Part shown: positions 5,634-47,409 of the stretch, in pieces | How positions within the stretch are numbered: position 1 is the stretch's first letter | Layout: each line of letters opens with the position of its first letter | Origin: a virus | Reading direction: 5' to 3' (one strand) | Virus record (IMG/VR): IMGVR_UViG_3300029736_000011 | DNA: 47,409 nucleotides | Translations under genes and position numbers: made by a program | Notes under the pieces: generated by a model | What the model saw: the letters and a program-made list of their open reading frames with translations, nothing else | What the model was told of the DNA's origin: nothing | Databases searched by the model: none

Positions 5634-5643
5634 CCCAAAACCA

Positions 5644-5932
5644 TACTCCTAAAAATAGGAGTAAGGTTAGGAGTAAGGTTAGGAGTAAGGCCGGAAACCC
5701 AAGTGCCACAAGGCTTTTGTGGAAAACATTACTCCTATTACTCCTAAAATCAGAAAAGATACCTTATTATTGCGTAAGTTTTCCACAACGCAGGAATCCT
5801 TGACTTATTGCAATAATTTTCAGAAATACGGTATGTATTCGCAGATTAGGAGTAAGGCGCAAGAAAATGGCCGAAAGCCCAGGCGTCCCAAGGCATTCAC
5901 GCCATACTCCTAATTTCAGAAATAGGCGTAAG
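5644..5932. repeat. Iteron cluster, putative phage origin of replication
   Basis: TTAGGAGTAAGG occurs three times in tandem (5656-5690) and once more at 5846-5857. There is a degenerate copy at 5922-5932. Inverted TTACTCCTA copies lie at 5729-5746, with TACTCCTA at 5644-5651 and 5904-5911. Palindrome TACTCCTAAAAATAGGAGTA at 5644-5663. The tract is AT-rich and sits directly after the primase/helicase. Confidence 0.6.
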
Positions 5933-10856: not shown

Positions 10857-11438
10857 TTGAATTGCGGGGGGGGGGCGCTTTATTTGGATAACAACGGAAA
10901 AGTAGCAGGCGGCGGATATTACCGGGTGGAGATCATCGCCCAGCTGTTCGGCGTCACCGTCCGCCGCATCCAGCAGCTGACCCAGGAGGGAGTGCTGCCC
11001 ACCACGGAGACCGTGGAGGGGCGGAGATATGACCTGGTGCCCACGATCCAGAGCTACGTCAAGTACCTCTCGGACAAGGCATACGGGAAGAACCGCTCCG
11101 AAAAAGAGAACGAACTGCGGGAGCAGAAAATGAGGGCGGAGATTGCCCTCAAGGAGAGCCAGGGGGAACTGCACCGGCTGCGGACGGACATCGCCGCCGG
11201 GAAGTACATCTCGGTGGAGGAAGTCATCCTCGACTACACCCGCTTCTTCGTGACCTTTAAGAATTTCGCCATGGCAATCCCGGCCAGGGTGGCCGACATG
11301 ATCAACGGTTACGTGGAACCCGTGGAGGTGCGCCGGATCGAAAAGGCGATCCAGGGGGAGATTCGGCGAATTCTAACCGCATTCGTGGTGGCTGGCGTGA
11401 CGGAGCCGGGAGGTGCCGTCGATGGGACGAAGAAGTAG
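10857..11438 (+). CDS. terS: Terminase small subunit, lambda Nu1-like (HTH)
   Basis: VEIIAQLFGVTVRRIQQLTQEGVLP parallels the Nu1 N-terminal HTH, followed by a coiled coil. The start is uncertain: TTG 10857 from the ORF track, GTG 10926, or ATG 10835 if the G-run were G9. Confidence 0.75.
   Translation: MNCGGGALYLDNNGKVAGGGYYRVEIIAQLFGVTVRRIQQLTQEGVLPTTETVEGRRYDLVPTIQSYVKYLSDKAYGKNRSEKENELREQKMRAEIALKESQGELHRLRTDIAAGKYISVEEVILDYTRFFVTFKNFAMAIPARVADMINGYVEPVEVRRIEKAIQGEIRRILTAFVVAGVTEPGGAVDGTKK
10866..10875. repeat. G10 homopolymer at or before the 5' end of terS
   Basis: Counted directly: attgc + 10 G + cgcttt. Confidence 0.9.
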
Positions 11439-22242: not shown

Positions 22243-25210
22243 GGGAAAAGAATACAGCCTTGCGGTAAAGATCGCCGGTTCCGTCTCCTCCTCCTTCAAC
22301 AGCGCCATGGGGGCCGCAGAGAACCGGATCAGCGGCCTGGGCACCATTGCAAAACAGGCGGCGGCGGTAGCAGCCGCCGCCTGGGGGGCGCTGAAGATCG
22401 GCGAATTCGTCAAGGATTCCATCCAGTCGGCTGTAAATTTTGAGAGCGCCATGGCGGACGTTGCGAAGGTCGTGGACGGTCTCCGGGATGACAACGGGAA
22501 CCTCACCGACTCCTACTACGCCATGTCGGACTCCATCGTCCAAATGTCGAAGGACATCCCCATGGCGGCAGAGGATCTGGCGGCAATCACCGCATCCGCA
22601 GGCACCGCAGGTATCGCCGCAGAGGAACTCACCACATTTACAGAGACCGCCGCCAAAATGGGAGTGGCCTTTGACACCACCGCCGAACAGGCAGGTGACT
22701 GGATGGCGAAGTGGCGTACCTCCTTCAGCATGGGCCAAGAGGAAGTCACAGCCCTCGCAGACCAAATCAACTACCTATCGAACAACAGCGCATCCACGGC
22801 TTCGGAGCTTTCCACCATCGTGACGGCGGTAGGCCCCCTGGGAGACGTGGCCGGTATTTCCGCAGCCCAAATCGCAGCCCTCGGCTCCACCATGGTCGGC
22901 GTCGGCGTCCAGCAGGACGTAGCAGCCACCGGCATCAAGAAGATGGCCACCACCATGGTGGCCGGAGCATCCGCCACTGATACGCAGGCAGCGGTGCTGG
23001 AGAAGCTGGGCATGGACGCCACTGACCTGGCCGTGCGAATGCAGGATGACGCGGTGGGAGCGATCCTGTCCTTCCTGGACGCCGTCAGCCAGCTGCCAAA
23101 GGCAGAGCAGGCGGCTGCGCTGAAGGACTACTTCGGGCAGGAATCCGTAGGAGCCATCGCCCCGCTTTTGACCAACCTGGACGTCCTACGGCAACGGTTC
23201 GAGATGGTCGCGGATGCGCAGCTTTACGCCGGGAGCATGGATGCGGAGTACGCAGCCAGAGCCGCCACCACTGCGAACAACATCCAGCTCTACGAAAACA
23301 GGATCGCCGCCCTGAAAATCCAAATCGGCGACTACCTTCTTCCCGTGGTCAACAAAGTGCTGGGGGTGGCATCCACCGGCCTGGACTGGATCAGCGGGAA
23401 GGTATCCGCAGCAGAGGGAATAATCTCGACCGCCATCGGAGCAGTGCGGGGAAAGGCGCTGGAGATCTTCGAGGCCATCCGGCCAAAGCTGGAGTCCATC
23501 GGTGCAAAGGCAACGGAGGTCTTTAGCACCCTCGCCGGGTACCTTGGATCGGCATTCGAGGCCGTGCAGCCAGCCCTCAGCTGGATCATCGACGTGGCCA
23601 TCCCGACAGCGGTCGGCGTCGTTTTGGACTTGGTGGACGCCTTCGGTTCAGCCGTACTCGTGGCCCTGGACTTCAAGGAAGTCCTGGTGGCAGCAGCGGC
23701 GGTTTACGGGGCATTCAAGGCCGGGAAGGCACTGCAGAGCATGATCCAGGGATTCCAGCAGGCGAAGGTGACGCTGGCGCTCTTTAAGGCGACCACCCAG
23801 GGAGCGAACATCGCACAAGCGGCCTTCAACGGAACCCTTACCATCGGCGAGACCCTGACCGCCCTCTTCACGGGGCAGGTGACGCTGGCGCAGCTGGCCC
23901 AGGCCGGATGGGCCACCGTGACCGGAGCGGTGACAAAGGCCTTCGGAGCCTTGAACGCCGTCCTCATGGCAAATCCCATCGTTTTGATCGTGACGGCCAT
24001 CGCCGCCGTGATCGCCATCCTGGTAGTCCTCTACACAAAATGCGAGGGCTTCCGCAACTTCGTCAATTCGGTGGCCAGCGCCATCGTCGGCTTCGTGAAG
24101 AACGCAGCCTCGGCCATCGCCGGATTTTTCAAAAACCTCTGGGCCACCATCCAGGGCATCTGGTCGGCGGTTTCCGGCTGGTTTAAGAGCAAGGTGATCG
24201 ACCCGCTGGTGAACTTCTTCGCCCCCATCGTTCAGTGGATCAGCGGCTTCTTCCGGGGCTGCTGGATCATCATCCAGGCGGTCTGGGCGGCAGTCTCCGG
24301 CTGGTTCAAGACCAACGTCATCGACCCCGTGGTGAACTTTTTCGCCCCCATCCCCGGCATCATCGGTGGATTTTTCTCCGGCCTTTGGACTTCCATCCAG
24401 AGCATCTGGGCGACCGTCTCCGGCTGGTTCAACCTCAACGTGATCCAGCCCCTGGTGAACTTCTTCGCACCCATCGTCGAGAACATCGGCGGATTTTTCG
24501 CAAACCTCTGGGCCTCCATCTGCAGCATTTGGCAGGCCGCAGGAGCCTGGTTCTCCGAGAACGTGACCACCCCCATCAACAACGCCTTTCAGACCATCGG
24601 CGACTTCGTGAAGGGAATCTTCAACGGCCTGATCGGCATGGTGGAGGGCATGATCAACCGGATCATCGGGGCCATCAACAGCTTCATCGGTGGCTTTAAC
24701 GACGTGGTCGGCTGGGGCGCATCCTTCATCGGCGTCGATTGGGAGGGCCTTGCAACGATCCCGGAGGTATCCCTCCCCCGGCTGGCCAAGGGCGGCATCG
24801 TGGACAGCCCCACCATCCTGGAGGCAGGCGAAGCCGGAACCGAGGCCATCGTCCCCCTCTCCGAGCTATGGGGCAAGATGCAGGACATGATCTCCGGCCC
24901 CGTCGGATACATGGCCGACAGGGTGTCCGCCCTGGCCGACCGGATGGAGTCCATGGAGATCGGTTCCACCGCCACCCCCATCTCCGAGCTGCTGGCCAAG
25001 CTGCAGGAACTCGGACGCGGCGGAGACCCCGACCCGAACGACCCGGAGAGCGGAGGGCCGGTCTACCACATCACCTACGCCCCGCAGTACTGCTTCGAGG
25101 GCGGAGCGCCCAGCAGAGAGGACATGACCGACGCAGAGCACATCTCCCAGGAGGAATTCGAGCGCCGGATGAATCAGTGGATGAAGGACAACGCAAGAAA
25201 GAGGTTCTAA
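22226..25210 (+). CDS. Tail tape measure protein
   Basis: 994 aa, GTG start with an AGGAGG RBS. Ala-rich helical N-terminal half, hydrophobic segment and internal repeats. Confidence 0.9.
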   Translation: MASANKGKEYSLAVKIAGSVSSSFNSAMGAAENRISGLGTIAKQAAAVAAAAWGALKIGEFVKDSIQSAVNFESAMADVAKVVDGLRDDNGNLTDSYYAMSDSIVQMSKDIPMAAEDLAAITASAGTAGIAAEELTTFTETAAKMGVAFDTTAEQAGDWMAKWRTSFSMGQEEVTALADQINYLSNNSASTASELSTIVTAVGPLGDVAGISAAQIAALGSTMVGVGVQQDVAATGIKKMATTMVAGASATDTQAAVLEKLGMDATDLAVRMQDDAVGAILSFLDAVSQLPKAEQAAALKDYFGQESVGAIAPLLTNLDVLRQRFEMVADAQLYAGSMDAEYAARAATTANNIQLYENRIAALKIQIGDYLLPVVNKVLGVASTGLDWISGKVSAAEGIISTAIGAVRGKALEIFEAIRPKLESIGAKATEVFSTLAGYLGSAFEAVQPALSWIIDVAIPTAVGVVLDLVDAFGSAVLVALDFKEVLVAAAAVYGAFKAGKALQSMIQGFQQAKVTLALFKATTQGANIAQAAFNGTLTIGETLTALFTGQVTLAQLAQAGWATVTGAVTKAFGALNAVLMANPIVLIVTAIAAVIAILVVLYTKCEGFRNFVNSVASAIVGFVKNAASAIAGFFKNLWATIQGIWSAVSGWFKSKVIDPLVNFFAPIVQWISGFFRGCWIIIQAVWAAVSGWFKTNVIDPVVNFFAPIPGIIGGFFSGLWTSIQSIWATVSGWFNLNVIQPLVNFFAPIVENIGGFFANLWASICSIWQAAGAWFSENVTTPINNAFQTIGDFVKGIFNGLIGMVEGMINRIIGAINSFIGGFNDVVGWGASFIGVDWEGLATIPEVSLPRLAKGGIVDSPTILEAGEAGTEAIVPLSELWGKMQDMISGPVGYMADRVSALADRMESMEIGSTATPISELLAKLQELGRGGDPDPNDPESGGPVYHITYAPQYCFEGGAPSREDMTDAEHISQEEFERRMNQWMKDNARKRF
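24122..24613 (+). repeat. Four tandem 123-bp (41-aa) repeats inside the tape measure gene
   Basis: GFFxxLWxxIQxIWxxVSGWFxxNVIxPxVNFFAPI occurs four times in phase. The fourth copy is degenerate. Confidence 0.85.
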
Positions 25211-30445: not shown

Positions 30446-32272
30446 ATGGGATACGGCCCCGTAAATGCCCCCAGCTCCGGCGGCAGCAGCGAGGAACTGG
30501 AGGCCGTCCGCAAACTGGCCCAAGGGGCGGCGGACACTGCCAATACCGCAAAGAACACTGCAGACACCGCAAAGGACACCGCCGACGCCGCCCTGGAGGC
30601 TGCGAATGCGGCCAGAGACGTCGCCAACACCGCCAAATCCACCGCAGACAGCGCCCTGGCGCTGGCCGGTACCGCCAAGAGCACTGCCGACACCGCCAAG
30701 AGCACCGCCGACCAGGCCCTGGAGACGGCGAACACCGCCAAATCCACCGCAGACGCCGCAGCATCCGCCGCCGAAAAGGCCCAGCAGACCGCAGACGAAG
30801 CGGCCCAGAGCATCAAGGACATCACCAATACGATCAGCTCCACGCCGTCGCAGAACGGCTCCCTGGTCTACAACGCCAGCGTCCAGTCCCCCACCTGGAA
30901 CAGCTATAACCCGGAGCAGCTCACCCTGGGCGGCGTGACGGAGGGCACCAACGCCGGGGAGTACGAGGCGACCTTCACCCCGAAGGGAGAGTACGTCTGG
31001 AGCGACGGCACCCAGGACGCCCGGACGGTCACCTGGACGATCAAGCGGAAAACCGTCCAGCTGCCCGCTCAGAGCGGAAGCCTCACCTACACCGGCAGCG
31101 CCCAGTCGCCCACCTGGGACAATTACAGCGCCGTGGAGCTGGACATGGGCGGCACCACCAGCGGTACCAACGCCGGGAGCTATCAGGCCACCTTCACGCC
31201 CACAAGCAACTTCCAGTGGAGCGACGGCACCTACGGGGCCAAGAGCGCCGCCTGGAGCATTGGCAAGGCGGCAGGCTCCCTGTCCATCAACCCCACCACG
31301 ATGACGCTGGACGTATCGACCCTTCAGAAGACCATCGCGGTCACCAGGGCCGGAAACGGCGCGATCTCCGTGTCGGTAGACAACGCCGCCGTCGCGGAGG
31401 CCAGCCTCTCCGGCACCACCATCACCGTCACCGGCAAGGCCAAGGGCACCGCGAAGATCACGGTCTCCGTCGCCGCCGGTACCAACCACACCGCCCCGGC
31501 CAGCGCGGTCTGCACCGCCACCGTCAGCCTGCCCAGCAAAACGCTGGCCGACAACGACCCAGCCACCATCCAGGCCGTGGGCGCAGCTGGCACCGGGGCC
31601 AGCTACTGGGCGGTAGGCGACAAAATCGGCATCGCCGTGAACGGCACCTTCGGAGGCCTCACGCTGAACCAGACAGTCTACGCCTTCATCCTGGGCTTCA
31701 ACCACAACCAGAGCGTGGAGGGCAACGGTATCGACTTCCAGTTCGGAAAGACGGCGGACGGCAGAGACATCGCCTTTGTCCAGAGCTACGGCAGCACCGG
31801 AACCGGCTTCTGCATGAACACCACGAACACCAACTCCGGCGGGTGGAAAAACAGCCACATGATGAAGACCATCTGCCCCGCCTTCCTCAACGCCCTCCCG
31901 GCGGCGTGGCGGAACGCCATCAAAAACTGCACCAAGTACAGCGACAACTCCGGCGGCGGAAGCGACAACGCCAGCTACGTCACCGCCACCACCCAGAAGA
32001 TCTTCCTGCTGGCGGAGTTCGAGGTACACGGCACCCGCTACTACGCCAACAGCGCGGAGCGGAACTATCAGAAGCAGTACGACTACTACAAAAACGGCAA
32101 CAGCAAGGTCAAATACCAGCATAGCAGCACCGGCTCCGCCTGCCTTTGGTGGCTGCGCTCGGTCAATGCGACCAGCGCGGCGAACTTCTGCGTTGTGAGC
32201 ACAGGCGGGGGCGCGAACGGCTACGGCGCCTTCTTTTCGTATGGCTTCGCGCCGGGCTTTAAGGCCGCCTAA
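30446..32272 (+). CDS. Tail fibre / receptor-binding protein, DGR target 1 (C-terminal C-type-lectin/DUF6273-like variable domain)
   Basis: 608 aa. Ala-rich TAKSTAD repeats, then two repeated domains of about 70 aa plus a Big_2-like region, then the C-terminus CLWWLRSVNATSAANFCVVSTGGGANGYGAFFSYGFAPGF, which overlaps VR1. Confidence 0.85.
   Translation: MGYGPVNAPSSGGSSEELEAVRKLAQGAADTANTAKNTADTAKDTADAALEAANAARDVANTAKSTADSALALAGTAKSTADTAKSTADQALETANTAKSTADAAASAAEKAQQTADEAAQSIKDITNTISSTPSQNGSLVYNASVQSPTWNSYNPEQLTLGGVTEGTNAGEYEATFTPKGEYVWSDGTQDARTVTWTIKRKTVQLPAQSGSLTYTGSAQSPTWDNYSAVELDMGGTTSGTNAGSYQATFTPTSNFQWSDGTYGAKSAAWSIGKAAGSLSINPTTMTLDVSTLQKTIAVTRAGNGAISVSVDNAAVAEASLSGTTITVTGKAKGTAKITVSVAAGTNHTAPASAVCTATVSLPSKTLADNDPATIQAVGAAGTGASYWAVGDKIGIAVNGTFGGLTLNQTVYAFILGFNHNQSVEGNGIDFQFGKTADGRDIAFVQSYGSTGTGFCMNTTNTNSGGWKNSHMMKTICPAFLNALPAAWRNAIKNCTKYSDNSGGGSDNASYVTATTQKIFLLAEFEVHGTRYYANSAERNYQKQYDYYKNGNSKVKYQHSSTGSACLWWLRSVNATSAANFCVVSTGGGANGYGAFFSYGFAPGFKAA
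30528..30808 (+). repeat. Degenerate repeats with 21-nt periodicity encoding TA(K/N)xTAD heptads
   Basis: accgccaa(a/g)(t/a)ccac(c/t)gc(a/c)gac-like units recur through this tract. Confidence 0.6.
32130..32268 (+). repeat. DGR variable repeat VR1
   Basis: Aligned by hand to TR 32924-33062 (offset 794). There are about 26 mismatches, all opposite TR adenines, for example AAC to GGC/TAC/AGC and AAT to CTT/GTT/TTT/TAT. Confidence 0.9.
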
Positions 32273-32298
32273 TCCAAAAATCCGACACCCAGTGAAGC

Positions 32299-32320
32299 GG
32301 TGGGGGCGAAAGCCCCCGCC
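32299..32320 (+). other. GC hairpin with a GAAA tetraloop downstream of VR1 (candidate DGR target-recognition stem-loop)
   Basis: GGTGGGGGC-GAAA-GCCCCCGCC, a 9-position stem with one T.G pair. It lies 30 nt after the end of VR1. Confidence 0.6.
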
Positions 32321-32361
32321 AGCGGAACGCAGACCAACGCCAGGGAAAGAGAGATCGCGCC

Positions 32362-32898
32362 ATGTCCGTTTACAAATCCCGCCGAAAAGACGCATCCGCC
32401 CAGTTCATCGCAGACGCCAGGGAGCTGCGCCGGATGACCGCCAGGGCCATGAAGCGGTTCCCCAGCAGCTACCGGTACATCGTGACCAACGGCCTGCTGG
32501 AGATGGCCAGGGAGATCGTGGTCAATGCCGTGAAGGGCAACGCCGTGTACCTGCACAAAGACCTCTCGCAAGGGGACTTCGACCTGCGGCACCGGTACCT
32601 GAAGATGGCGGAAGTGACCGCAGACGCATACCTGGAGGAAATCACCTTTGCCTTCTCCCTTGTGGATGATGGGAACAGCTTCTTCAAGAACAAGGCCGAA
32701 TACCAGAAGGTCTTCAACGGCCTCACGACCCAGGGCAACACCGTCCTGAAGCGGCTGCGGAAGGTGATCGACTCGGACAAGGATCGCTGGCGGCGGTACC
32801 AGAAGGAAAAGACTGAGGCCACGCCGAAGCCCCCACCCAAGGCCACCGGCGGAGGGCAGCACACGCCGCCCCCGCCGCCCTGGCCACCCAACACATAA
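32362..32898 (+). CDS. avd: Avd-like accessory variability determinant (four-helix bundle) with a Pro-rich C-terminal tail
   Basis: Lies between VR1 and the TR. RFPSSYRYIVTNGLLEMAREIVVNAVKGN resembles the Avd / 23S-IVS family core. The tail is TPKPPPKATGGGQHTPPPPPWPPNT. Confidence 0.65.
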   Translation: MSVYKSRRKDASAQFIADARELRRMTARAMKRFPSSYRYIVTNGLLEMAREIVVNAVKGNAVYLHKDLSQGDFDLRHRYLKMAEVTADAYLEEITFAFSLVDDGNSFFKNKAEYQKVFNGLTTQGNTVLKRLRKVIDSDKDRWRRYQKEKTEATPKPPPKATGGGQHTPPPPPWPPNT

Positions 32899-32923
32899 AC
32901 CAATCCCATAAGGGCAAGCTCTG

Positions 32924-33062
32924 ACGGCTCCGCCTGCAATTGGTGGCTGCGCTCGGTCAATGCGACCAACACGACGAACTTCTGCAATGTGAACACAGAC
33001 GGGAGCGCGAACAACAACAACGCCTACAATTCGAATGGCTTCGCGCCGGGATTTAAGAAAAC
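32924..33062 (+). repeat. DGR template repeat (TR)
   Basis: Non-coding and rich in AAC/AAT (aacaacaacaac). It is the invariant partner of VR1 and VR2. By hand count, 33 adenines lie in the stretch shared with both VRs. Confidence 0.9.
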
Positions 33063-33382
33063 GTTACTGGGGCCAGAAATAGTAGCCAACGGCGAACCCG
33101 TGCCCCAAAACTTAAAGGAGAGCTTGCACCTTGGAGCCTGACCCAGACAGCTGGGCTTCATTCCTAAAATCGCCCCACGACACGATCCGCCCGGACGCTG
33201 CTTGCATGGCCGGGGAGTTTGATGGGCACCAAACCGCAGCTTCAGACCGGAGCGGCGGGACGGGCCTCCCCGGTTTCATTGGCGGACGTTACGCAGCTGC
33301 GCTGAAAAACCACCCCCAATGACGGGACAGGTGCCGGAAGCGACGCACCCGGCAAACCACCCGCCGGAGGGGCCGTCTGTGC

Positions 33383-34675
33383 GTGGGGGCTGCGTCAGAC
33401 CTAAACAGAGAGGGGACAGCCCCTTTGACAAGTGAAGAACGGCGGGAGGCCCGATACCAGCGCCGAAAGGCGAAACGGGAGGCAAAGGCCCTGGAAACCA
33501 CCGGAAAGAGCTTCGACGAAGTAATCAACTTCGGAAACATGGTGGAGGCCGGAAGGAAGTGCTGCGACGGCTCCCGCTGGAAGACCTCGACGATCCTATT
33601 TGAAACGCACCTCCTGCCGGAGTGCGCCGACATCGTGGAGACCCTCGCCGGGGAGAAGCGGCGGTTCAAGGGCTTTCACAGCTTCACCACCGTGGAGCAC
33701 GGCAAGGCCCGTCAGATCGACGCTCTCCCCATCCAGGAGCGAGCAGGGCAGAAATGTCTGTGCCAGAACTACCTGACCAAAGCCTTCTCCCGGAGCTTCA
33801 TCTCCACCAACAGCGCCAGCCTGGAGGGCAGGGGCATGGACTATGCCCTGGAGACCCTGCACCAGCAGCTCACCCGCCACTTCCACCGGTACGGCCTGGA
33901 GGGCGGCATCTACCAGTTCGACTTCAAGGGCTACTTCGGGAGCCTGCCCCACGATCTAATCAAGGCCAGGGCCAGACGGGTGATCCGGGACGATAGACTC
34001 TACCGGCTCTACTGCAGCTACATCGACGATTTTCTGAAGATGAAGACCGCAGACCCAAAGGCGAAGCGGAAACGCGGCGTGGGCCTGGGGAGCGAGGTCT
34101 CCCAGATCACCGCCCTGGACGCTGCCAGCCCCATCGACCACTACTTCAAAGACCGGAGGCGAGTGGAGGCCTATGGCCGGTACATGGATGACGGCTACGC
34201 CATCAGCCCCTCCCTGGAGGAGCTGCGAGACCTCGACCGCTGCAACCACCTGCTGGCAGCAGACCTGGGCCTCACCCTGAACGACAAGAAATGCACCATC
34301 ACCCCCTTCAAGCACCACAGCTTCACCTTCCTGAAGGTGCGCTTCACACTGCAGGAGAGCGGCAAGGTCACCATGAAGCTGAGCCGCCAGAGCATCAAGG
34401 CCATCCGGCGGAAGATGGACATCTTCAGGGCCTGGGTGACAGAGGGGCAGATGGACGCCGAAGACGCCATCCAGAGCTACCAGAGCTGGAGGGCACACGC
34501 GAAGCGGTGCGACAGCTACCGCACCCTGGAAGCCATGGACGCCCGCTTCACGTCCATGTTTGCGCCGGAGCTTCGGCGCAGAAAGAACAAATTCCCCTGC
34601 ACCCTCCGGGCCAAGAAGACAAAGACCGGGTGGGAGTACACCAGAATCACGCAGCAGGCCACCCAGGCCGCATAA
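33383..34675 (+). CDS. DGR reverse transcriptase
   Basis: Contains YQFDFKGYFGSLPH (motif A region), GVGLGSEVSQITAL (the DGR-type [LIV]GxxxSQ motif) and GRYMDDGYAI (YMDD). GTG 33383 is taken from the ORF track, and the true start is uncertain. Confidence 0.9.
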   Translation: MGAASDLNREGTAPLTSEERREARYQRRKAKREAKALETTGKSFDEVINFGNMVEAGRKCCDGSRWKTSTILFETHLLPECADIVETLAGEKRRFKGFHSFTTVEHGKARQIDALPIQERAGQKCLCQNYLTKAFSRSFISTNSASLEGRGMDYALETLHQQLTRHFHRYGLEGGIYQFDFKGYFGSLPHDLIKARARRVIRDDRLYRLYCSYIDDFLKMKTADPKAKRKRGVGLGSEVSQITALDAASPIDHYFKDRRRVEAYGRYMDDGYAISPSLEELRDLDRCNHLLAADLGLTLNDKKCTITPFKHHSFTFLKVRFTLQESGKVTMKLSRQSIKAIRRKMDIFRAWVTEGQMDAEDAIQSYQSWRAHAKRCDSYRTLEAMDARFTSMFAPELRRRKNKFPCTLRAKKTKTGWEYTRITQQATQAA

Positions 34676-34689
34676 GGAAGGAGCCGCCC

Positions 34690-35106
34690 ATGGAGTACAT
34701 CGTCCACCACAGATGCCGGGAACTCTCTGCCGCCGGAGACAGACTGAACCTGCCCTACGGCACCCGGCTAAACACCATCGGAGACTTTATCGCCACGGCT
34801 GAGGGCGGGGCAATCTGCTTCACCACCAGCGAGCTGGCGCACCGCTACATGGCCCGGAACGACGATGGCCGGGGCCTGGAGCGGGGCAAGGTCTCCTGGG
34901 CTATCGCCTACAGCCGAAGGGAACGCCGGAGCGATGACGGCAGGCACCGCCAGCGGTTTACCGACCGGGAGATCGAAATGCTGGAGCGGGAGTGGAGCCG
35001 CTACCTTGTGCCGGACGCAGAGACCATCCTATTCAACCACGCCTTCTTCGAGGCGGAGCCAGAGGAACTGCTCCCCCTTGCAAGGGCGCTCAACATCAAA
35101 CCGTAA
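34690..35106 (+). CDS. Hypothetical protein immediately downstream of the RT
   Basis: The start was set to ATG 34690, giving 138 aa. No family recognised. Confidence 0.55.
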   Translation: MEYIVHHRCRELSAAGDRLNLPYGTRLNTIGDFIATAEGGAICFTTSELAHRYMARNDDGRGLERGKVSWAIAYSRRERRSDDGRHRQRFTDREIEMLEREWSRYLVPDAETILFNHAFFEAEPEELLPLARALNIKP

Positions 35107-35121
35107 AAGGAGGACACCCCC

Positions 35122-35775
35122 ATGTACAAGATCATCAGCGCCGGGAAAATCGTCGCCCTCTGCGACGCCCCCAGATACGTCACCAGGAACCCGGACACCG
35201 GGGCGCTGGTGGAAGCCACGGCGGAGGAAGCCATCGGCGTCTCCGTGACCGGGACGCTCTACAACCTGAACGGCGGCAGCGGCATCCCGGACGCACCGGA
35301 GGCCGTGGTCTCCGAGGTGGAGGGCGGCGAGATGGTATTCATCGCCATCTCCCAGGCCGACGCCGTCAGCACCACCAGCGGGATCGCCTTTGTCGCCATG
35401 GCGGAGGCCGGGACGATTGACGGCGTGACTGCCGGAGAACACGCCGACCTCTTCTCTCCGTGGGCCTATCCCGTCAACTACACCGTGGGCCAGATCCGGC
35501 GCTACACGGACGGGAAGCTGTATAAGTGCCTTCAGGCCCACACGTCGCAGGCGGACTGGACGCCGGACACGGCGGTGAGCCTGTGGGTGAGCATCTCAGA
35601 CCCGGCGGAGGAATGGCCGGAGTGGTCTCAGCCCCTGGGAGCGCATGACGCCTACTCCAAGGGGGCAAAGGTGAGCCACAACGGGAAGCACTGGATCAGC
35701 GACCTGGACGCCAACGTCTGGGAGCCTGGGCAGTACGGATGGACGGAAGCCCCGGCGGAGGCCCAGGAGGAATGA
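35122..35775 (+). CDS. Protein with two C-terminal CBM5/12-like carbohydrate-binding repeats
   Basis: AGGAGG RBS. YTVGQIRRYTDGKLYKCLQAHTSQADWTPD...SLW and YSKGAKVSHNGKHWISDLDANVWEPG resemble chitin-binding type-3 repeats. Confidence 0.6.
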   Translation: MYKIISAGKIVALCDAPRYVTRNPDTGALVEATAEEAIGVSVTGTLYNLNGGSGIPDAPEAVVSEVEGGEMVFIAISQADAVSTTSGIAFVAMAEAGTIDGVTAGEHADLFSPWAYPVNYTVGQIRRYTDGKLYKCLQAHTSQADWTPDTAVSLWVSISDPAEEWPEWSQPLGAHDAYSKGAKVSHNGKHWISDLDANVWEPGQYGWTEAPAEAQEE

Positions 35776-40600: not shown

Positions 40601-42214
40601 CTACCGCCTTTCATGGAGCGGCAATGCCAGGATGAACACCGGGCCGACGAAGTAGATCTCCGTCCCAGGTTCGCCTGGCTCCCCTTTGGTGGAGGCAGGG
40701 GGAGCTAATACGAACCGCCCCTCCGCCCCGGCAACGGCCTCGGCATCCGCGACAAGCTCCATGTCGACCTCCGACCCCTTCCCGGAGTAGTTGAACGCCA
40801 CCTGGAGCCTATCGTCCCACAGATATACCGAATTCACAAAGGAATCAATGACCCTCCGCCTGAAAGCAGCATCCTCCAGATCACCGCCCCGGAACTTTTC
40901 AAACCAATAAACCACGAAGTCCCGCTCGATGTGCGTCTGGGCAGCCTCCTCCAGGGTGATGGCGTCCCGGAGCCGGGAGGACTCCGCCTCAAGTTCCACC
41001 AGCCGCCCCTTTGTTGTCGTGGTGATGATCCCGGCCTCGATGGCCCTCATGAGGTTTGCCGTGGATCTCTGGTTTTCGGAGAGCTGATCCCGCAGGCCAA
41101 GCAGAACGGCGGAGTTTGCCTCCCGCTCCTGGTAGGCCATGACCGCATCCGCCATCCACTCGATGACCTCCGGCTTCAACACATAGTCCAGGGTAGCCTG
41201 CACCACCACCCGCTCCAGCCAATCCCGCCCCACATTGGCCTTTGAGCAGCAGTGCTCCGTCCGGCGCTTTTGGCAGACATAGTAGTGGTGCAAAGCGCCG
41301 GAGCGGGCCGTGCCGGACACGCCAACCATTGGAGCGCCGCACAGGCCACAGAACAGCTTCCCAGTGAGCATATACTCTCCGTTTTCCCGATGCCGCCCCT
41401 GGGGATTTTTCTTGTTCTTCAGGCGCTCGCCCACCGCCAGGAACAGCGCCCGGTCGATGACCGGAGGGACGCCATCCTCAACCCGGACATCCCCAAAACG
41501 ATAAACCCCAACATAGGTCTCGTTCGTCAGCAGACGGTGGAAGCTATTCCTTCCCCAGAGACCGCCCCTCTTCGTTCGGATGCCCCGGCCATTCAAGTCG
41601 TTGGAAATCTCGACGAACGGGACGCCGTCTGCAACCTTGCGGAAGATTTCACGCACCACCTCCGCTTCCCCAGGATCAACGGCAAAGCGACCGTCCTCGC
41701 CCTTGCGGTACCCGAACGGGATGGAGCCGCTATTCACCTTGCAATTCATGGCATTATACCTCATCCCCCGCCGGATATTTTGCGACAGATTGGCGGAGTA
41801 ATACTCTGCGGAGCCTTCCAGGACGGACTCCAGCAAAATGCCCTCCGGGCCGTCTGGTATGGATTCCTTTGCATACAGAACCCGGACGCCGCACCGCTTC
41901 AGCCTGAACTTATAGGTGGCGGAGTCGTATCGGTTGCGGGCAAAGCGGTCAATCTTCCAGACAATCAGGTAGGCCCAGCGCCGATGAGCGGCATCCCGCA
42001 GCATCGTCTGAAACTGGGGCCGCTTATCCGTCATGCCGGAGAGCGCCCGGTCGGCGTAGACCTTTACCACCCGGAGGCCCAGGGAGCTGGCATAGGCCTC
42101 GCAGTCGGCTACCTGCTGCTCGATGGATACATCCCGCTGATTATGGGAGGAATAGCGGGCATAGATGACGCAGTCGCCATGGCAGCGGTCAATAGACAAA
42201 TCAAGCTCCATCAT
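40601..42214 (-). CDS. int: Large serine recombinase (integrase)
   Basis: 537 aa. VIYARYSSHNQ (catalytic Ser region), ...VWKIDRFARN, a recombinase domain, and the zinc-ribbon CGLCGAPM...YYVCQ. Confidence 0.92.
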   Translation of the reverse strand: MMELDLSIDRCHGDCVIYARYSSHNQRDVSIEQQVADCEAYASSLGLRVVKVYADRALSGMTDKRPQFQTMLRDAAHRRWAYLIVWKIDRFARNRYDSATYKFRLKRCGVRVLYAKESIPDGPEGILLESVLEGSAEYYSANLSQNIRRGMRYNAMNCKVNSGSIPFGYRKGEDGRFAVDPGEAEVVREIFRKVADGVPFVEISNDLNGRGIRTKRGGLWGRNSFHRLLTNETYVGVYRFGDVRVEDGVPPVIDRALFLAVGERLKNKKNPQGRHRENGEYMLTGKLFCGLCGAPMVGVSGTARSGALHHYYVCQKRRTEHCCSKANVGRDWLERVVVQATLDYVLKPEVIEWMADAVMAYQEREANSAVLLGLRDQLSENQRSTANLMRAIEAGIITTTTKGRLVELEAESSRLRDAITLEEAAQTHIERDFVVYWFEKFRGGDLEDAAFRRRVIDSFVNSVYLWDDRLQVAFNYSGKGSEVDMELVADAEAVAGAEGRFVLAPPASTKGEPGEPGTEIYFVGPVFILALPLHERR

Positions 42215-43565: not shown

Positions 43566-43753
43566 GACCTAAGCCAAAGGTGCTGGCCACCGCCAGCGGC
43601 GGCATTGATACCAGGTCGATTCCTCAGCACATTAAAGAGAACCTGGCACAAGCCGCCTTTCGGAGCATCCTCCAGGCCTACAACGACCCGTTGGTGCGCT
43701 CGGATTACGAGCGATGGAAAGCAGGGCGTGGCTCCGAAAGAATGAATGCGTGA
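43562..43753 (+). CDS. Hypothetical protein
   Basis: 63 aa. Overlapping start and stop codons with both neighbours. Confidence 0.5.
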   Translation: MRPKPKVLATASGGIDTRSIPQHIKENLAQAAFRSILQAYNDPLVRSDYERWKAGRGSERMNA

Positions 43754-44537
43754 GAGAAAGCGAGGATGCGGAATGGACTGGGAATCCATTGAAAAGGAAA
43801 TCGGACAGGGCGCACTCGAATCAGCCCAGGCGGCTCAGCAGCGCATAGCCGACCGGAGGGCAGCTCGCCGTAAACGGCAGCGCCGGAGGCGGCTCGTGCA
43901 GCTGGCCACCGCCGGATCTGCAGTGGCCATCGCCATCGGCGTGGTCTTTATGAGTGCGGCCAGCGAAAGGAGCCGGACGCCCACGGCTCCTTTGCCTTCC
44001 CAAGAGGCCAGCACCTCGGATCAGACGCAGTACGCCTACATAGAGCCGACCGCAACGCCGGAGCCTACCCCGGAGGCCACCGACGCAACGAAGCTCCTGG
44101 TGAGCGTCCCTTTGGATGCGGAGACGCAGACCGCCATATTTGAGCTTTGCGGCAGCGACCCGGACACCTTCTGCGCCGTCATGGCTATCTCCAAGACGGA
44201 AAGCAACTTCGACACCGACGCCGTCGGCGACAACGGCGTCAGCATTGGGATGGCGCAGATCAACACCACCTGGCAAACGGGCCGCATGGAATCCCTCGGC
44301 GTTACCGACCTGACAGACCCGGTACAATGCGCAACCGTCTGCCTGGACTACCTCCGGGAGCTTTCGGAGGATTACGGTTTCGGATGGGTCGAAGACCACG
44401 GCCTGTACCTCGCCTACAACATGGGGCCTGGAGGGGCCAGGAACGCTATCAACAGCGGAGTATCATCCAGCAAATACAGCAGGGCCGTCCTTTCCGCATA
44501 CGGAGAGTACGCTGCAGAGATGGAGGTGTCGGAATGA
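43746..44537 (+). CDS. Membrane-anchored lytic transglycosylase (SLT domain) protein
   Basis: TM helix LATAGSAVAIAIGVVFM. MAISKTESNFD (catalytic Glu-Ser), SIGMAQIN and YLAYNMG are SLT-like. Confidence 0.7.
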   Translation: MRERKRGCGMDWESIEKEIGQGALESAQAAQQRIADRRAARRKRQRRRRLVQLATAGSAVAIAIGVVFMSAASERSRTPTAPLPSQEASTSDQTQYAYIEPTATPEPTPEATDATKLLVSVPLDAETQTAIFELCGSDPDTFCAVMAISKTESNFDTDAVGDNGVSIGMAQINTTWQTGRMESLGVTDLTDPVQCATVCLDYLRELSEDYGFGWVEDHGLYLAYNMGPGGARNAINSGVSSSKYSRAVLSAYGEYAAEMEVSE

Positions 44538-44908
44538 AGATCGCCCTGCAGGGAAACACCCTCCTTATCAAAGAAGCCGATAATGTCCAGTTCGCGGTCA
44601 TCAAGAGCTGGAACAAGATGCGCTGGGACAGGAAGACGCAGCTGCTCAGCGGAACGGCGGACATGGAACTGCTGGACAAGCTGGCCAGCATCGTCCAGCT
44701 GCCCCCGGCCATCGCCCAGATCAGGGCGCAGCTCCACCGTGTCCAGGAGGCCATAGACAGCGAGCGAGTGAATCCACACCCGAAGCCCCTCGCCGATTAC
44801 CCCGTGAAGATGTCCCTCTACGACCACCAGGTGCGGGGAGCCAATATGTGCCTGGTCGCCTTTGGATGGGCCAGCCCCGATGCAATCGAACGGAGGAATG
44901 AACCATGA
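44534..44908 (+). CDS. SNF2-helicase N-terminal fragment (ends just before motif I)
   Basis: The start MKIALQGNTLLIKEADNVQF...W...K resembles phage SNF2 N-termini. The sequence ends ...MSLYDHQVRGANMCLV, followed by 13 unrelated residues and a stop. Confidence 0.55.
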   Translation: MKIALQGNTLLIKEADNVQFAVIKSWNKMRWDRKTQLLSGTADMELLDKLASIVQLPPAIAQIRAQLHRVQEAIDSERVNPHPKPLADYPVKMSLYDHQVRGANMCLVAFGWASPDAIERRNEP

Positions 44909-45273
44909 GCGAAGCCATGACCATCAACGACATCATCAACCAGCTGGGAAGCCTTCGGGCAAGCAGTGCGGAGTTTGCCAAAAGCGACCCGGAGAACGAA
45001 ATCTGGCAGGCCGACGTCACCGCCTGCGAGACATCCATCCGCATCCTCGCCGCCCTGAGCGGGGAGGGCTGCACCGACCTGGAGACCACCCTGGATTTCC
45101 TGCAGGACTACAATTCCCTGGCGAAGCAGTACCAGACCATCCACCGGAAGTACGAGGCCCCAGGGAAGCCCACCCACAAAGACGGCGTCTGGCATTGCCC
45201 CGCCTGCAACAGCCGCGTCCAAATCAACCATACCCACTGCCACCGCTGCGGCAAGAAGATCGGGTGGCGTTGA
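44905..45273 (+). CDS. Hypothetical protein with a C-terminal zinc ribbon
   Basis: ATGA overlap with the previous ORF. 122 aa. Contains CPACNSRVQINHTHCHRCG. Confidence 0.6.
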   Translation: MSEAMTINDIINQLGSLRASSAEFAKSDPENEIWQADVTACETSIRILAALSGEGCTDLETTLDFLQDYNSLAKQYQTIHRKYEAPGKPTHKDGVWHCPACNSRVQINHTHCHRCGKKIGWR

Positions 45274-45331
45274 GTGGGTGGGTGCGCACTTATTCAGACC
45301 CTTAACAGCCTGACTGGCTGAAGGAGCATAG

Positions 45332-46312
45332 ATGAAAGGAATGAACGACATGAAAAAGCCCTTGAAAGTTTTTCTTTCCGGCCCCATCTCGTCAAGGCTG
45401 GAAACCTACAAGGCGGAGTTTGATGACGCCGCACGGATCGTCAGCGAGGCAGGCCACCTGCCGCTGAACCCGGCCACCCTGCCCAGCGGCATGGAGAACC
45501 GCGACTACATGAGGATCTGCCTCGCCATGCTGGACAGCGCAGACCTCCTCCTTCAGCTCCCCGGCTGGGGCAAGAGCGCCGGAGCAATCGCAGAGCGCAC
45601 CGTCGCTATGAAGACCGGCGTCGAGAGCCTGACCCTGGAGGATTTCATCCGGGAGTACGTCCATAGAGCTGGCGCAACACCCGTCCGCACAATCAGGGAT
45701 GGAGCCATCGATCTGGCAAACCTGAAAGCGGCGATCCGGAACGGGGATGGCCCGGAGATGATCCGGCCCCACGACGAACTGGACATCCTCCTGGACACTG
45801 AAAAAACCATCACCGTGACTTGCGGATTTGTCAACAGCGAAATGGCACGCTTTATTTTCAAAGACTGCTATGACGAATGCGAGATGAACGATGACAACAC
45901 CAATCAGACCGGATACTTCGGAAGCAAGGGCCGCAGGCACGTCCTGGAGGACATTTATCCCCATCTGCCCCAGGAATTGCGGAGCATCATCCGGCCACGC
46001 GAGATCGTGGAGACCATCGGCGGCGAGGTAAAGAAATACGAAGACCCGCTCTGGTTGCCATCTGCAACAGATCTCTTCGGAGCACCAGAGGATAAATGGT
46101 GGCCGGATGAGCCTGGCAGCTTCCAGCTCCCCATCTTCCTGAAGGAGCGAGACCGGGTAAAAGAGTGCCCCAACAGAGGCACATGGTATTGGTGGCTGCG
46201 CTCGGTCCGTGCGACCGACACGGCGGACTTCTGCGGTGTGAGCACGGACGGGGGCGCGGACTACGACGGCGCCTACTTTTCGTTTGGCTTCGCGCCGGGC
46301 TTTGACCTCTAA
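45332..46312 (+). CDS. DGR target 2: DUF4406-like (nucleoside 2-deoxyribosyltransferase-fold) N-terminal domain fused to a DUF6273/C-type-lectin-like variable domain
   Basis: N-terminus: KVFLSGPIS...YMRICLAMLDSADLLLQLPGWGKSAGAIAERTVA. C-terminus: WYWWLRSVRATDTADFCGVSTDGGADYDGAYFSFGFAPGF, which overlaps VR2. Confidence 0.8.
   Translation: MKGMNDMKKPLKVFLSGPISSRLETYKAEFDDAARIVSEAGHLPLNPATLPSGMENRDYMRICLAMLDSADLLLQLPGWGKSAGAIAERTVAMKTGVESLTLEDFIREYVHRAGATPVRTIRDGAIDLANLKAAIRNGDGPEMIRPHDELDILLDTEKTITVTCGFVNSEMARFIFKDCYDECEMNDDNTNQTGYFGSKGRRHVLEDIYPHLPQELRSIIRPREIVETIGGEVKKYEDPLWLPSATDLFGAPEDKWWPDEPGSFQLPIFLKERDRVKECPNRGTWYWWLRSVRATDTADFCGVSTDGGADYDGAYFSFGFAPGFDL
46187..46305 (+). repeat. DGR variable repeat VR2 (remote)
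   Basis: Aligned by hand to TR 32938-33056 (offset 13249). There are about 27 mismatches, all opposite TR adenines, for example AAT to CGT/GGT/TTT and AAC to GAC/TAC/GGC. Confidence 0.9.
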
Positions 46313-46329
46313 TCCAAAAATCACAAAAT

Positions 46330-46351
46330 CCCCGGCGCTTCTGCGCCGGGG
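46330..46351 (+). other. GC hairpin with a 4-nt loop downstream of VR2
   Basis: CCCCGGCGC-TTCT-GCGCCGGGG, a perfect 9-bp stem. It lies 24 nt after the end of VR2. Confidence 0.6.
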
Positions 46352-46365
46352 AAGCAAGATAGAAG

Positions 46366-47409
46366 GTGATCCACACGACACCCGTGAATAAAGGCTTCGG
46401 CTTCCTCTTTGAGATGGGCTGTGGCAAGACCCTGACGGCCATCGCCGTGGCCGGAGCCGGATACCAGCAGAAGCGGATCAGCAGGGTGCTGATCGTCGCC
46501 CCCACCTCGGTGGTCGCCGTCTGGCCCAAAGAGTTCCAGGATTACGCAGCCTTCCCCTACACCATCCGCACCCTGCTGGGAACGAAGCAGCAGCGTCTCA
46601 AGGCCCTGGCAGACCTTGAGCGGTTCCCATACCCACACCTGAAGGTGGCGGTGATCAACTACGAGAGCACCTGGAGAGAGGAAATATTCGACGCCCTCCT
46701 GGACTTCGACGCAGACCTGGTCATCGCCGATGAGAGCCAGCGCATCAAATCCCACGACGCAGCCCAGAGCAAGGCCATGCACCAGCTGGGGGACAAAGCC
46801 CGGTACAAGCTCATCCTCTCCGGCACCCCGGTACAGAACGAAGCCGTAGACCTCTGGAGCCAATACCGGTTTTTAGACCCTACCATCTTCGGGACGAACT
46901 TCTACGCCTTCCGCAGCCGCTACTGCGAGATGGGCGGCTTCAACCGCAAACAGATCGTCCGGTACCGTGACCTGGACACTCTCATCCGAAAGGAACACAG
47001 CATCGCCTACCGCGTGACCAAAGAGGAAGCCCTCGACCTGCCGGAGCAGACCTTCGAGAGCCGCTACATCACACTGAGCCGCTCGGAGCGTAACCTTTAC
47101 GACCGGCTCCGGCGGGACAGCTATGCGGAGCTGGCAGACGGCGGCACCATCACCGCCACCACAGTTCTGACGAAGCTCCTGCGCCTGCAGCAGTTCACCG
47201 GCGGCTTCCTGGCGGAGGATGACGCCATCCAGCCGAAGCTGGTCAGTCGGGGGAAGCTTGACGCCCTGGAGGACATCCTCCAAGACTACGTGGTCGAGGG
47301 CAAAAAGAAGCTGGTAATATTCGCCCGGTTCATCCCAGAGATTCACGAGATCGAGGCTCTGTGCGAAAAGACGCTCCGCTCCGCCGGAATGAAAGCCGTG
47401 GCCATCTAC
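46366..47409 (+). CDS. SNF2/DEAD-like helicase, ATPase core; 3' end runs off the window and continues at base 100
   Basis: The frame is open from TAG 46360-46362 to the window end. Contains FEMGCGKT (motif I), VIADESQRIK (motif II) and LSGTPVQN (motif III). There is no ATG upstream of motif I; candidate starts are GTG 46366 and GTG 46384. Confidence 0.85.
   Translation, partial: MIHTTPVNKGFGFLFEMGCGKTLTAIAVAGAGYQQKRISRVLIVAPTSVVAVWPKEFQDYAAFPYTIRTLLGTKQQRLKALADLERFPYPHLKVAVINYESTWREEIFDALLDFDADLVIADESQRIKSHDAAQSKAMHQLGDKARYKLILSGTPVQNEAVDLWSQYRFLDPTIFGTNFYAFRSRYCEMGGFNRKQIVRYRDLDTLIRKEHSIAYRVTKEEALDLPEQTFESRYITLSRSERNLYDRLRRDSYAELADGGTITATTVLTKLLRLQQFTGGFLAEDDAIQPKLVSRGKLDALEDILQDYVVEGKKKLVIFARFIPEIHEIEALCEKTLRSAGMKAVAIY
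47311..47409. repeat. Terminal overlap, second copy (identical to 1-99)
   Basis: Read directly. Confidence 0.95.

Follow-up and report, generated by a model that had tools for sequence, protein, structure and literature searches.

The DNA analysed here is the virus record IMGVR_UViG_3300029736_000011 of IMG/VR, a stretch of 47,409 nucleotides (nt) that is called the window below. An original prediction, made from the sequence alone, had placed in it a complete diversity-generating retroelement (DGR) attached to a tail-fibre gene. The locus was followed up computationally and the prediction was upheld, all defining parts of such an element being found in canonical order: a target gene that ends in a variable repeat (VR), an end resembling the initiation of mutagenic homing (IMH) sequence together with a hairpin, a gene for a basic helical accessory protein, the template repeat (TR), a spacer RNA and the reverse transcriptase (RT), with intact open reading frames (ORFs) throughout. 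The 608-amino-acid (aa) ORF with VR1 at its end and the 178-aa ORF between VR1 and the TR were both present. The features are as follows.

30446..32272, + strand: target gene 1, putative distal tail-fibre/receptor-binding protein, 608 aa, DUF6273 at residues 460-600
32131..32263, + strand: VR1, last 47 codons of the fibre gene; its core (32144-32241) encodes fibre residues 567-599
32243..32282, + strand: IMH-like 3' end of VR1; GC-rich 14-mer GGCTTCGCGCCGGG in common with the TR, then CTTTAAGGCCGCC and TAATCCAAAAATC
32299..32320, + strand: GC-rich hairpin past VR1, 9-bp stem GGTGGGGGC-GAAA-GCCCCCGCC, without a T-run
32362..32898, + strand: accessory gene in the avd position, 178 aa, pI 9.9, predicted four-helix bundle with a Pro-rich C-terminal tail
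32925..33057, + strand: TR, non-coding, intergenic, 26 nt past the stop codon of the accessory gene
33068..33405, + strand: TR-RT spacer RNA, Rfam RF03077 (RT-2 RNA), starting ~10 nt past the end of TR homology
33425..34675, + strand: DGR-type RT, 416 aa from TTG 33425, with LGSEVSQ and YMDD motifs
45332..46312, + strand: target gene 2, 326 aa, N-terminal DUF4406 and C-terminal DUF6273, 13.2 kb downstream of the TR
46188..46303, + strand: VR2, last ~40 codons of the 326-aa ORF, with a 5' end shorter than that of VR1
46330..46351, + strand: GC-rich hairpin past VR2, 9-bp stem CCCCGGCGC-TTCT-GCGCCGGGG, loop off the GRNA consensus

VR1 (32130-32268) and the TR (32924-33062) align without gaps over 139 nt at an offset of 794 nt, and they differ at 25 positions (13 A>G, 7 A>T and 5 A>C, read from TR to VR1). 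Every one of these mismatches lies opposite a TR adenine, while none (0/99) was found at the C, G and T positions. With adenine at 40 of the 139 TR positions, the hypergeometric probability of this distribution is 1.7e-17; when only the mutagenised core was considered, the bias was still evident for VR1 (p ~2e-12) and for VR2 (p ~4e-12). The gapless repeat with differences at adenines only had been foreseen, with a count of about 26 mismatches; the adenine rule was upheld, but the count is 25 and six of these are not due to mutagenesis (see below). A third copy of the TR was reported by a repeat finder at 46174-46306. This VR2 differs from the TR at 20 positions, including a fixed A>C at column 128 of the alignment, and again all 20 are TR adenines with no difference elsewhere, so that the ORF at 45332-46312 follows the same rule and the claim of two targets was borne out. 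A pattern in which each A of the TR was replaced by N was then run on the whole window and on shuffled sequence. In the window it matched at exactly three places, VR1, the TR and VR2, each time over 111 nt with 0 mismatches; the shuffled sequence gave no match, and 0 were expected by chance.

The mutagenised core spans TR 32938-33035, which corresponds to VR1 32144-32241 (alignment columns 15-112), and contains 32 adenines. In VR1 19 of these 32 adenine-templated positions are substituted, by which 15 amino acids are altered. Read in the VR1 frame, the TR core has 19 adenine-bearing codons, and the expected loading with AAC and AAT was seen in 12 of them. All core adenines but one (31/32) occupy codon position 1 or 2, the exception being position 3 of an ACA codon, and a stop codon cannot arise from any substitution at a core adenine. 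The theoretical repertoire of the 19 codons amounts to ~2e18 peptides.

For a comparison among related genomes, the RT was used as query and yielded 21 IMG/VR loci, six of them with an RT 97-99% identical to that of the window; an exact 41-mer from the 3' end of VR1 yielded ten more human-gut metagenome contigs. The 15 VR1 copies obtained from different human-gut contigs are all distinct, in genomes that are 95-99% identical. In the VR1 core all 32 adenine columns vary among the 15 copies, compared with 3 of the 66 non-adenine columns. In the 11 contigs with full flanks the 32 adenine columns of the core had a mean pairwise identity of 42%, the 66 non-adenine columns one of 99%, and the stretch of 400 nt of the fibre gene upstream of VR1 one of 97% (gapless identity of the downstream flank was lowered by indels and was not used). 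The heterogeneity check that had been proposed for reads, run here between genomes, thus gave VR1 variation confined to the TR-adenine columns. VR2 likewise varies at 30 of 31 adenine columns among six related contigs.

The TRs of the 11 related contigs are 99-100% identical and differ at one C/G position (column 43) and one singleton. Column 43 is also the only recurrent non-adenine column that varies in VR1, and the VR1 allele equals the TR allele in 10/10 contigs in which both could be read. When TR, VR1 and VR2 of the same sample were compared, the alleles were C/C/C in 3300030029, G/G/G in 3300014938 and C/C/C in the window. Both VRs carry a copy of the TR allele, which demonstrates that sequence has moved from the TR into each of them since the TR alleles split, and the identity of 99% at the non-adenine VR columns, against 97% in the flanking gene, indicates that the VRs keep being renewed from the TR. 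This lineage has therefore undergone TR-to-VR transfer in the recent past.

The uncultured relatives comprise the IMG/VR uncultivated viral genomes 3300045988_137373, 3300030029_000020 and 3300014938_000008, human-gut ENA contigs and metagenome-assembled genomes (MAGs) of Oscillospiraceae. Compared with the window they have an RT that is 97-99% identical, a TR that is identical or one base off and the same gene order, but each carries its own VR1 and VR2 sequences. In more distant relatives (RT 63-70% identical) the same cassette is kept, and in most of them mismatches occur at adenines only. In one locus, L014 (IMGVR_UViG_3300006139_000290, 4827-5688), VR and TR differ at 14 non-adenine positions, mostly G>A, in addition to 10 adenine ones; this cassette may be decaying, or its TR may have mutated since the last homing event. 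Two further relatives, IMGVR_UViG_3300014556_000042 (loci L005, L027 and L028) and OZEL01002568 (L037), have the 5' flank of VR2 joined via a hybrid VR to the 3' flank of VR1. In window terms 43734-46322 is joined to 32147 onwards, which puts the DUF4406-DUF6273 target directly before avd, TR and RT. The target parts of these contigs are 85% and 95% identical to the window, and the contigs therefore represent phages different from that of the window. The junction could be either a real alternative arrangement, a product of recombination between VR1 and VR2 or an assembly chimera.

Not all VR1/TR mismatches vary among the relatives. Columns 1, 128 and 135-138, six of the 25, each show one and the same base throughout the 15 VR1 copies. 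A mutagenic origin was considered for these six, the first and the last five of the mismatches, and ruled out because no relative departs from them, not even at the synonymous GGA-to-GGC site. This site is column 128, and since it is synonymous, selection at the protein level cannot have fixed it; it is C in VR2 too, and the combination of C in the VR and A in the TR is retained in distant lineages. The invariance of the fixed columns implies that transfer ends between columns 112 and 128, in or near the GC-rich 14-mer GGCTTCGCGCCGGG. The six fixed mismatches mark the repeat boundary and the IMH/IMH* region, outside the transferred segment. Together, the column-43 marker and the fixed column 128 map the transferred segment to TR 32938 - ~33050.

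The TR counterpart of the IMH-like end, ATTTAAGAAAACG..., differs from that of VR1 at positions that are fixed in all relatives, and TAATCCAAAAATC, which lies past the stop codon, is common to VR1 and VR2. By analogy with BPP-1 we infer an IMH-like role for the 3' end of VR1 (PMC3240598, PMC5758913). Neither hairpin has a T-run, and both start 14-16 nt past TAATCCAAAAATC; their distance from the stop codon is ~26 nt for VR1 and 17 nt for VR2. Across 11 lineages the stem has changed in sequence but still pairs, and the loop remains GAAA or GCAA; the VR1 hairpin is a putative target-recognition hairpin or cruciform. Target hairpins of phage DGRs have been described with GC-rich stems of 7-10 bp, GRNA loops and a distance of 4-34 bp from the VR (PMC3240598); in stem and loop the VR1 hairpin agrees with this consensus, and it lies ~35 nt past the end of VR1 homology, at or marginally beyond this range. 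In the cassette no + strand terminator was called and a promoter scan found none, which is consistent with co-transcription of its parts.

The fibre protein is composed of an N-terminal alanine-zipper coiled coil, repeated beta domains and the C-terminal DUF6273 domain. Its Pfam matches are DUF6273 (1.8e-16) and Alanine_zipper, it matches phrog_37900 over its full length at 7e-180, with weaker matches to tail-fibre PHROGs, and its best structural match in BFVD is a 'Tail-collar fiber protein'. Upstream neighbours of the gene encode a baseplate wedge subunit (baseplate J-like), a Tail_P2_I protein and a tail fibre. The coiled coil is encoded by an in-frame 21-nt periodic repeat at 30518-30782. 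In the second target the DUF4406 domain is nucleoside 2-deoxyribosyltransferase-like, and the gene sits among non-structural genes. No full-length homologue of it (coverage of at least 80%) was found in GenBank phages. In Roseburia phage Shimadzu and in Dulem virus 34 a similar distance separates the RT from a DUF6273-like ORF.

The ORF between VR1 and the TR had been described as Avd-like. Its AlphaFold2 model shows four helices with a mean predicted local distance difference test score (pLDDT) of 84.7, and the top Foldseek matches of this model were 2gsc and 2rld (TM-score 0.82-0.85, E 3e-3), which we take to belong to the same Pfam family as Avd, a relationship that a literature search did not confirm. 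Sequence comparisons were less telling. The match to phrog_3206 'Avd protein of DGR' was marginal (E 0.008), Pfam and NCBIfam gave no match, and no PDB sequence was retrieved either with the single sequence or with a profile of 34 sequences. The gene is retained in the avd position in every related cassette. Very poor conservation and a basic pI (9.5 +/- 0.7) are known from avd genes in general (Wu et al., PMC5758913). The earlier assignment thus stands for fold, charge and position but not for significant sequence similarity, and we regard the protein as probably Avd-like in these three respects, with homology unproven.

In the spacer between TR and RT a match to RF03077 was obtained with 73.5 bits (gathering score 40; E 6e-15). 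RT-2 was found in all related loci that have the spacer (13/13), 5-10 nt after the TR and with 59.5-80.9 bits. RNAalifold on 11 lineages gave compensatory changes in 15 of 50 predicted pairs, and conserved single-stranded blocks are AAAGGAGAG, GGACGCUGCUUGCAUGG and GUUUCAU. RT-1 to RT-19 were described as motifs near RT genes, of which only RT-10 was linked to a DGR, that of BPP-1, and it was speculated that other RT motifs serve other DGRs (Weinberg et al., PMC5737381). As RT-2 sits where the BPP-1 spacer sits, we infer that RT and Avd may bind the DGR RNA at RT-2 and that cDNA synthesis may be primed there. RT-2 was the only RNA family matched in the window at Rfam gathering thresholds, which neither a group II intron nor a retron RNA family reached. 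In a 98%-identical relative (L003) a type II hammerhead ribozyme (RF02276, 50 bits) was found on the minus strand at 11362-11430, ~4 kb past the RT; the window has no match to RF02276 at the gathering threshold.

The longest ORF of the RT begins with GTG 33383. The RTs of relatives begin with M(A)NS.ERREARYQ or V/LTSEERRE, and GAGAGGGG precedes TTG 33425 in the window; on account of the N-termini of the relatives TTG 33425, and not GTG 33383, is most likely the start. A DGR-type RT with LGSEVSQ and YMDD had been placed about 320 nt past the TR; type and motifs were recovered, but counted from TTG 33425 the spacer measures ~362 nt. Among solved structures the best match was 8ub7, the RT-Avd-RNA complex of BPP-1 with its RT (bRT), which aligned nearly end to end. 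In this alignment LGSEVSQ faces IGSLTSQ (I181) of bRT, and the arginine equivalent to R74 is kept. Pairwise BLASTP against BPP-1 Brt gave 4e-14 at 22% identity, the PHROG match was phrog_1423 (8e-78), and in Pfam only the generic RVT_1 was matched. All homologues among GenBank phages come from DGR-bearing phages and are <40% identical: Roseburia Shimadzu, Faecalibacterium Taranis, Brigit, Toutatis, Roos and Pioen, nd4, nd12, and Bordetella, Bacteroides and crAss-like phages. With its [I/L/V]GxxxSQ motif, the lack of a maturase or endonuclease extension and DGR RTs as closest relatives, the protein classifies by sequence as a DGR RT. An ORF of 138 aa (34690-35106; phrog_29409 of unknown function, no Pfam match) starts 15 nt past the RT stop codon and is kept in this position in 17/17 related loci at 45-99% identity. 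Either it serves the DGR as a further accessory gene, or its conservation may reflect mere phage synteny.

Positions 1-99 of the window are identical to positions 47311-47409. This exact terminal redundancy of 99 nt indicates that the window represents a complete, circularly assembled genome of 47,310 bp. The genome, with a G+C content of 61%, encodes small and large terminase, portal, a protease/major-head fusion, tail sheath, tape measure, baseplate and endolysin, as well as a large serine integrase (40601-42214, minus strand). Integrase and tail sheath together identify a temperate sheath-tailed phage, and the tail-sheath gene agrees with the earlier assignment to the myoviruses. RT relatives of 64-85% identity occur in Oscillospiraceae MAGs, which suggests a gut Oscillospiraceae-type host, and one 98%-identical copy is embedded in a human-gut contig of 532 kb and is therefore a prophage. 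Megablast of the whole cassette against GenBank phages gave no match, so the phage is not close to any deposited one; the adenine-masked TR pattern retrieved nothing from 185,579 species genomes. Elsewhere in the genome four tandem in-frame repeats of 123 nt were noticed in the tape-measure gene (24115-24622), and a protein with a CBM_5_12 carbohydrate-binding module is encoded between the DGR and the lysis genes (35122-35775).

Taken together, we assign a probability of roughly 0.96 to the interpretation that the locus is a canonical DGR with the order target-avd-TR-RT in a temperate sheath-tailed gut phage. Both VRs lie at the 3' end of a coding target and the TR is non-coding and near the RT, as is characteristic of DGRs. 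At the level of sequence the locus also has the asymmetric IMH/IMH*-type 3' end and the GC-rich hairpin with a 4-nt loop. Ongoing mutagenic retrohoming is supported indirectly, at the population level, between genomes and not within one sample. Several results weigh against the canonical DGR. In hhalign the accessory protein was related to BPP-1 Avd with a probability of 0.7% only, so that significant similarity to Avd is lacking. In the PDB search the RT scored 35 bits with bRT and 31 bits with a group II RT, a small margin, and its best NCBIfam match is the group II intron RT model, at 62 bits against a cut-off of 300 bits. The VR2 hairpin has a TTCT loop that departs from the GRNA consensus needed in BPP-1, where a change of the loop from GAAA to CTTT nearly abolished homing (PMC3240598); the VR2 copies that carry this hairpin differ between genomes at adenine columns only. 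Finally, the C-type-lectin scaffold that the original prediction had proposed for the variable residues was not confirmed by the fold search. The model of the DUF6273 domain gave no significant Foldseek match in the PDB to a C-type-lectin domain, Mtd or TvpA; the Pfam domain is DUF6273, for which a C-type-lectin fold is reported in the literature only.

Other explanations of the VR/TR pattern were weighed. It might be the historical trace of a fossil DGR that was once active and no longer works. A single genome cannot show activity, and the 14 non-adenine mismatches of L014 show that decay does occur in the clade. Set against this are components that are all intact ORFs or RNAs, the higher identity of the non-adenine VR positions (99%) than of the flanking gene (97%) among relatives, the column-43 allele of the TR that was copied into both VRs, and 15 distinct VR1s out of 15 in genomes that are 95-99% identical; a fossil is thus unlikely. 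The variability between contigs might also be an assembly artefact in which VR1, VR2 and TR were collapsed or mixed, given that repeats of ~115 nt can confuse assemblers and that in L005 and L037 the 5' flank of VR2 runs into the 3' flank of VR1. Yet the 15 VR1s come from different samples and assemblers and each is unique, none is a mosaic of the TR and VR2 of its own sample, and mis-assembly would not yield the adenine rule, which leaves this explanation with very little probability.

Least of all do we favour paralogous repeats under diversifying selection or gene conversion, next to an RT that stems from a group II intron, a retron or a defence system, a combination to which we give practically no credence. 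Sub-threshold NCBIfam matches to the group II intron RT, Drt3a and Drt2 and the generic RVT_1 match in Pfam fit such an origin of the RT. Selection cannot, however, explain the lack of any change at 99 non-adenine positions, synonymous sites included, nor the fact that A stands at every variable site in the non-coding copy. A group II intron is further contradicted by the lack of an intron RNA at the Rfam gathering thresholds and by the score of the maturase model (62 versus 300 bits), and a retron by the lack of a retron RNA at the same thresholds and by the TR/VR pair, which retrons do not have; moreover, the RT has no maturase or endonuclease extension and aligns end-to-end with bRT.

For the canonical DGR the following course of events can be proposed, in which the place of priming, a complex of RT and accessory protein, the hairpin's role and receptor binding by the fibre are assumed by analogy. 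As in BPP-1, the RT and the accessory protein would together bind an RNA that reaches from the end of the accessory gene through the TR and the RT-2-type spacer. The cDNA would be primed inside the spacer and would copy the TR, faithfully at C, G and U and with random bases opposite adenines. It would then replace the homologous stretch at the 3' end of the fibre gene (VR1) and, in trans, also VR2, which lies 13 kb away in the DUF4406-DUF6273 gene. The 3' limit of transfer and its direction would be set by the GC-rich 14-mer with the VR-specific sequence behind it, and the GC-rich hairpin 25-35 nt downstream would mark the target. As a result 19 codons (12 of them AAY, with Y for C or T) would be re-randomised on the surface of DUF6273, presumably shifting receptor specificity.

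The element was compared with that of Bordetella phage BPP-1 (mtd-avd-TR-brt). Gene order, strand logic and the position of the VR at the 3' end of a tail receptor-binding gene are the same, and both systems have a non-coding AAY-rich TR, adenine-only differences and a small basic helical accessory protein. In both, the repeats end in a GC-rich 14-mer that is followed by VR- or TR-specific sequence, corresponding to (G/C)14 with IMH/IMH* (PMC5758913, PMC3240598), and the VR is followed by a GC-rich hairpin whose loop is GAAA (PMC3240598). However, the RTs are only 22% identical and the accessory proteins have no detectable sequence similarity. The spacer of the window is Rfam RT-2 and ~360 nt long, whereas that of BPP-1 has the RT-10 motif (PMC5737381). 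The target domain is DUF6273 instead of Mtd, a second, non-adjacent target is present, and, as another difference, the phage is temperate and sheath-tailed, with a Gram-positive-type gut bacterium as its host.

DGRs with DUF6273 targets are known from phages of gut Firmicutes, namely Faecalibacterium Lelie, Roos, Pioen and CP11, Roseburia Shimadzu, nd4 and nd12 (PMC11792537, PMC10743442). They share with the window the human gut as habitat and the VR at the C-terminal end of DUF6273; several of them have two targets served by one TR, and adenine-restricted variation among related genomes with identical TRs has likewise been reported for them. Their RTs are the nearest homologues of the window RT among GenBank phages, at <40% identity. 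They differ in that the second target of the window is a DUF4406-DUF6273 fusion with a C-terminal VR and not the 'tentaclin' with an N-terminal VR, and in that the first target is a coiled-coil fibre of 608 aa. The architecture of the window is type B1 of Wu et al., the commonest one among DGRs (PMC5758913). Multi-target DGRs made up 13% of the same survey, and non-adjacent targets within one prophage are documented (PMC5758913). Published examples also exist of DUF6273 targets and of gut myophage cassettes with two targets (PMC10743442, PMC11792537). The element thus belongs to a well-described class, and near-identical uncultured copies are already present in IMG/VR and ENA.

What the locus adds is modest: RT-2 as a DGR spacer, marker transfer that maps the boundaries of homing, a DUF4406-DUF6273 target with a non-consensus loop, and the hybrid VR junctions. 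The C/G polymorphism of the TR that was copied into both VRs amounts to a natural marker-transfer experiment. The orphan Rfam motif RT-2 is tied to the TR-RT spacer of a demonstrable DGR in 14/14 loci, which offers a second RNA class for studies of recruitment and priming, and the second target with its atypical loop is a usable test of the generality of the BPP-1 target-recognition rules. A more far-reaching proposal, for and against which we see the chances as evenly balanced, is that RT-2 is the cDNA-priming and scaffold RNA of a large DGR clade of Oscillospiraceae phages, that the element acts in trans on the DUF4406-DUF6273 gene, and that the hybrid junctions are real and repeat-mediated. 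If this is true, RT-2 would stand beside the RT-10 spacer of BPP-1 as a DGR RNA of a second structural class, the loop requirement of BPP-1 would not be general, and an enzyme-linked binding domain would be diversified besides the fibre. For the host range of the phage, the element means that the fibre can in principle sample ~1e18 variants.

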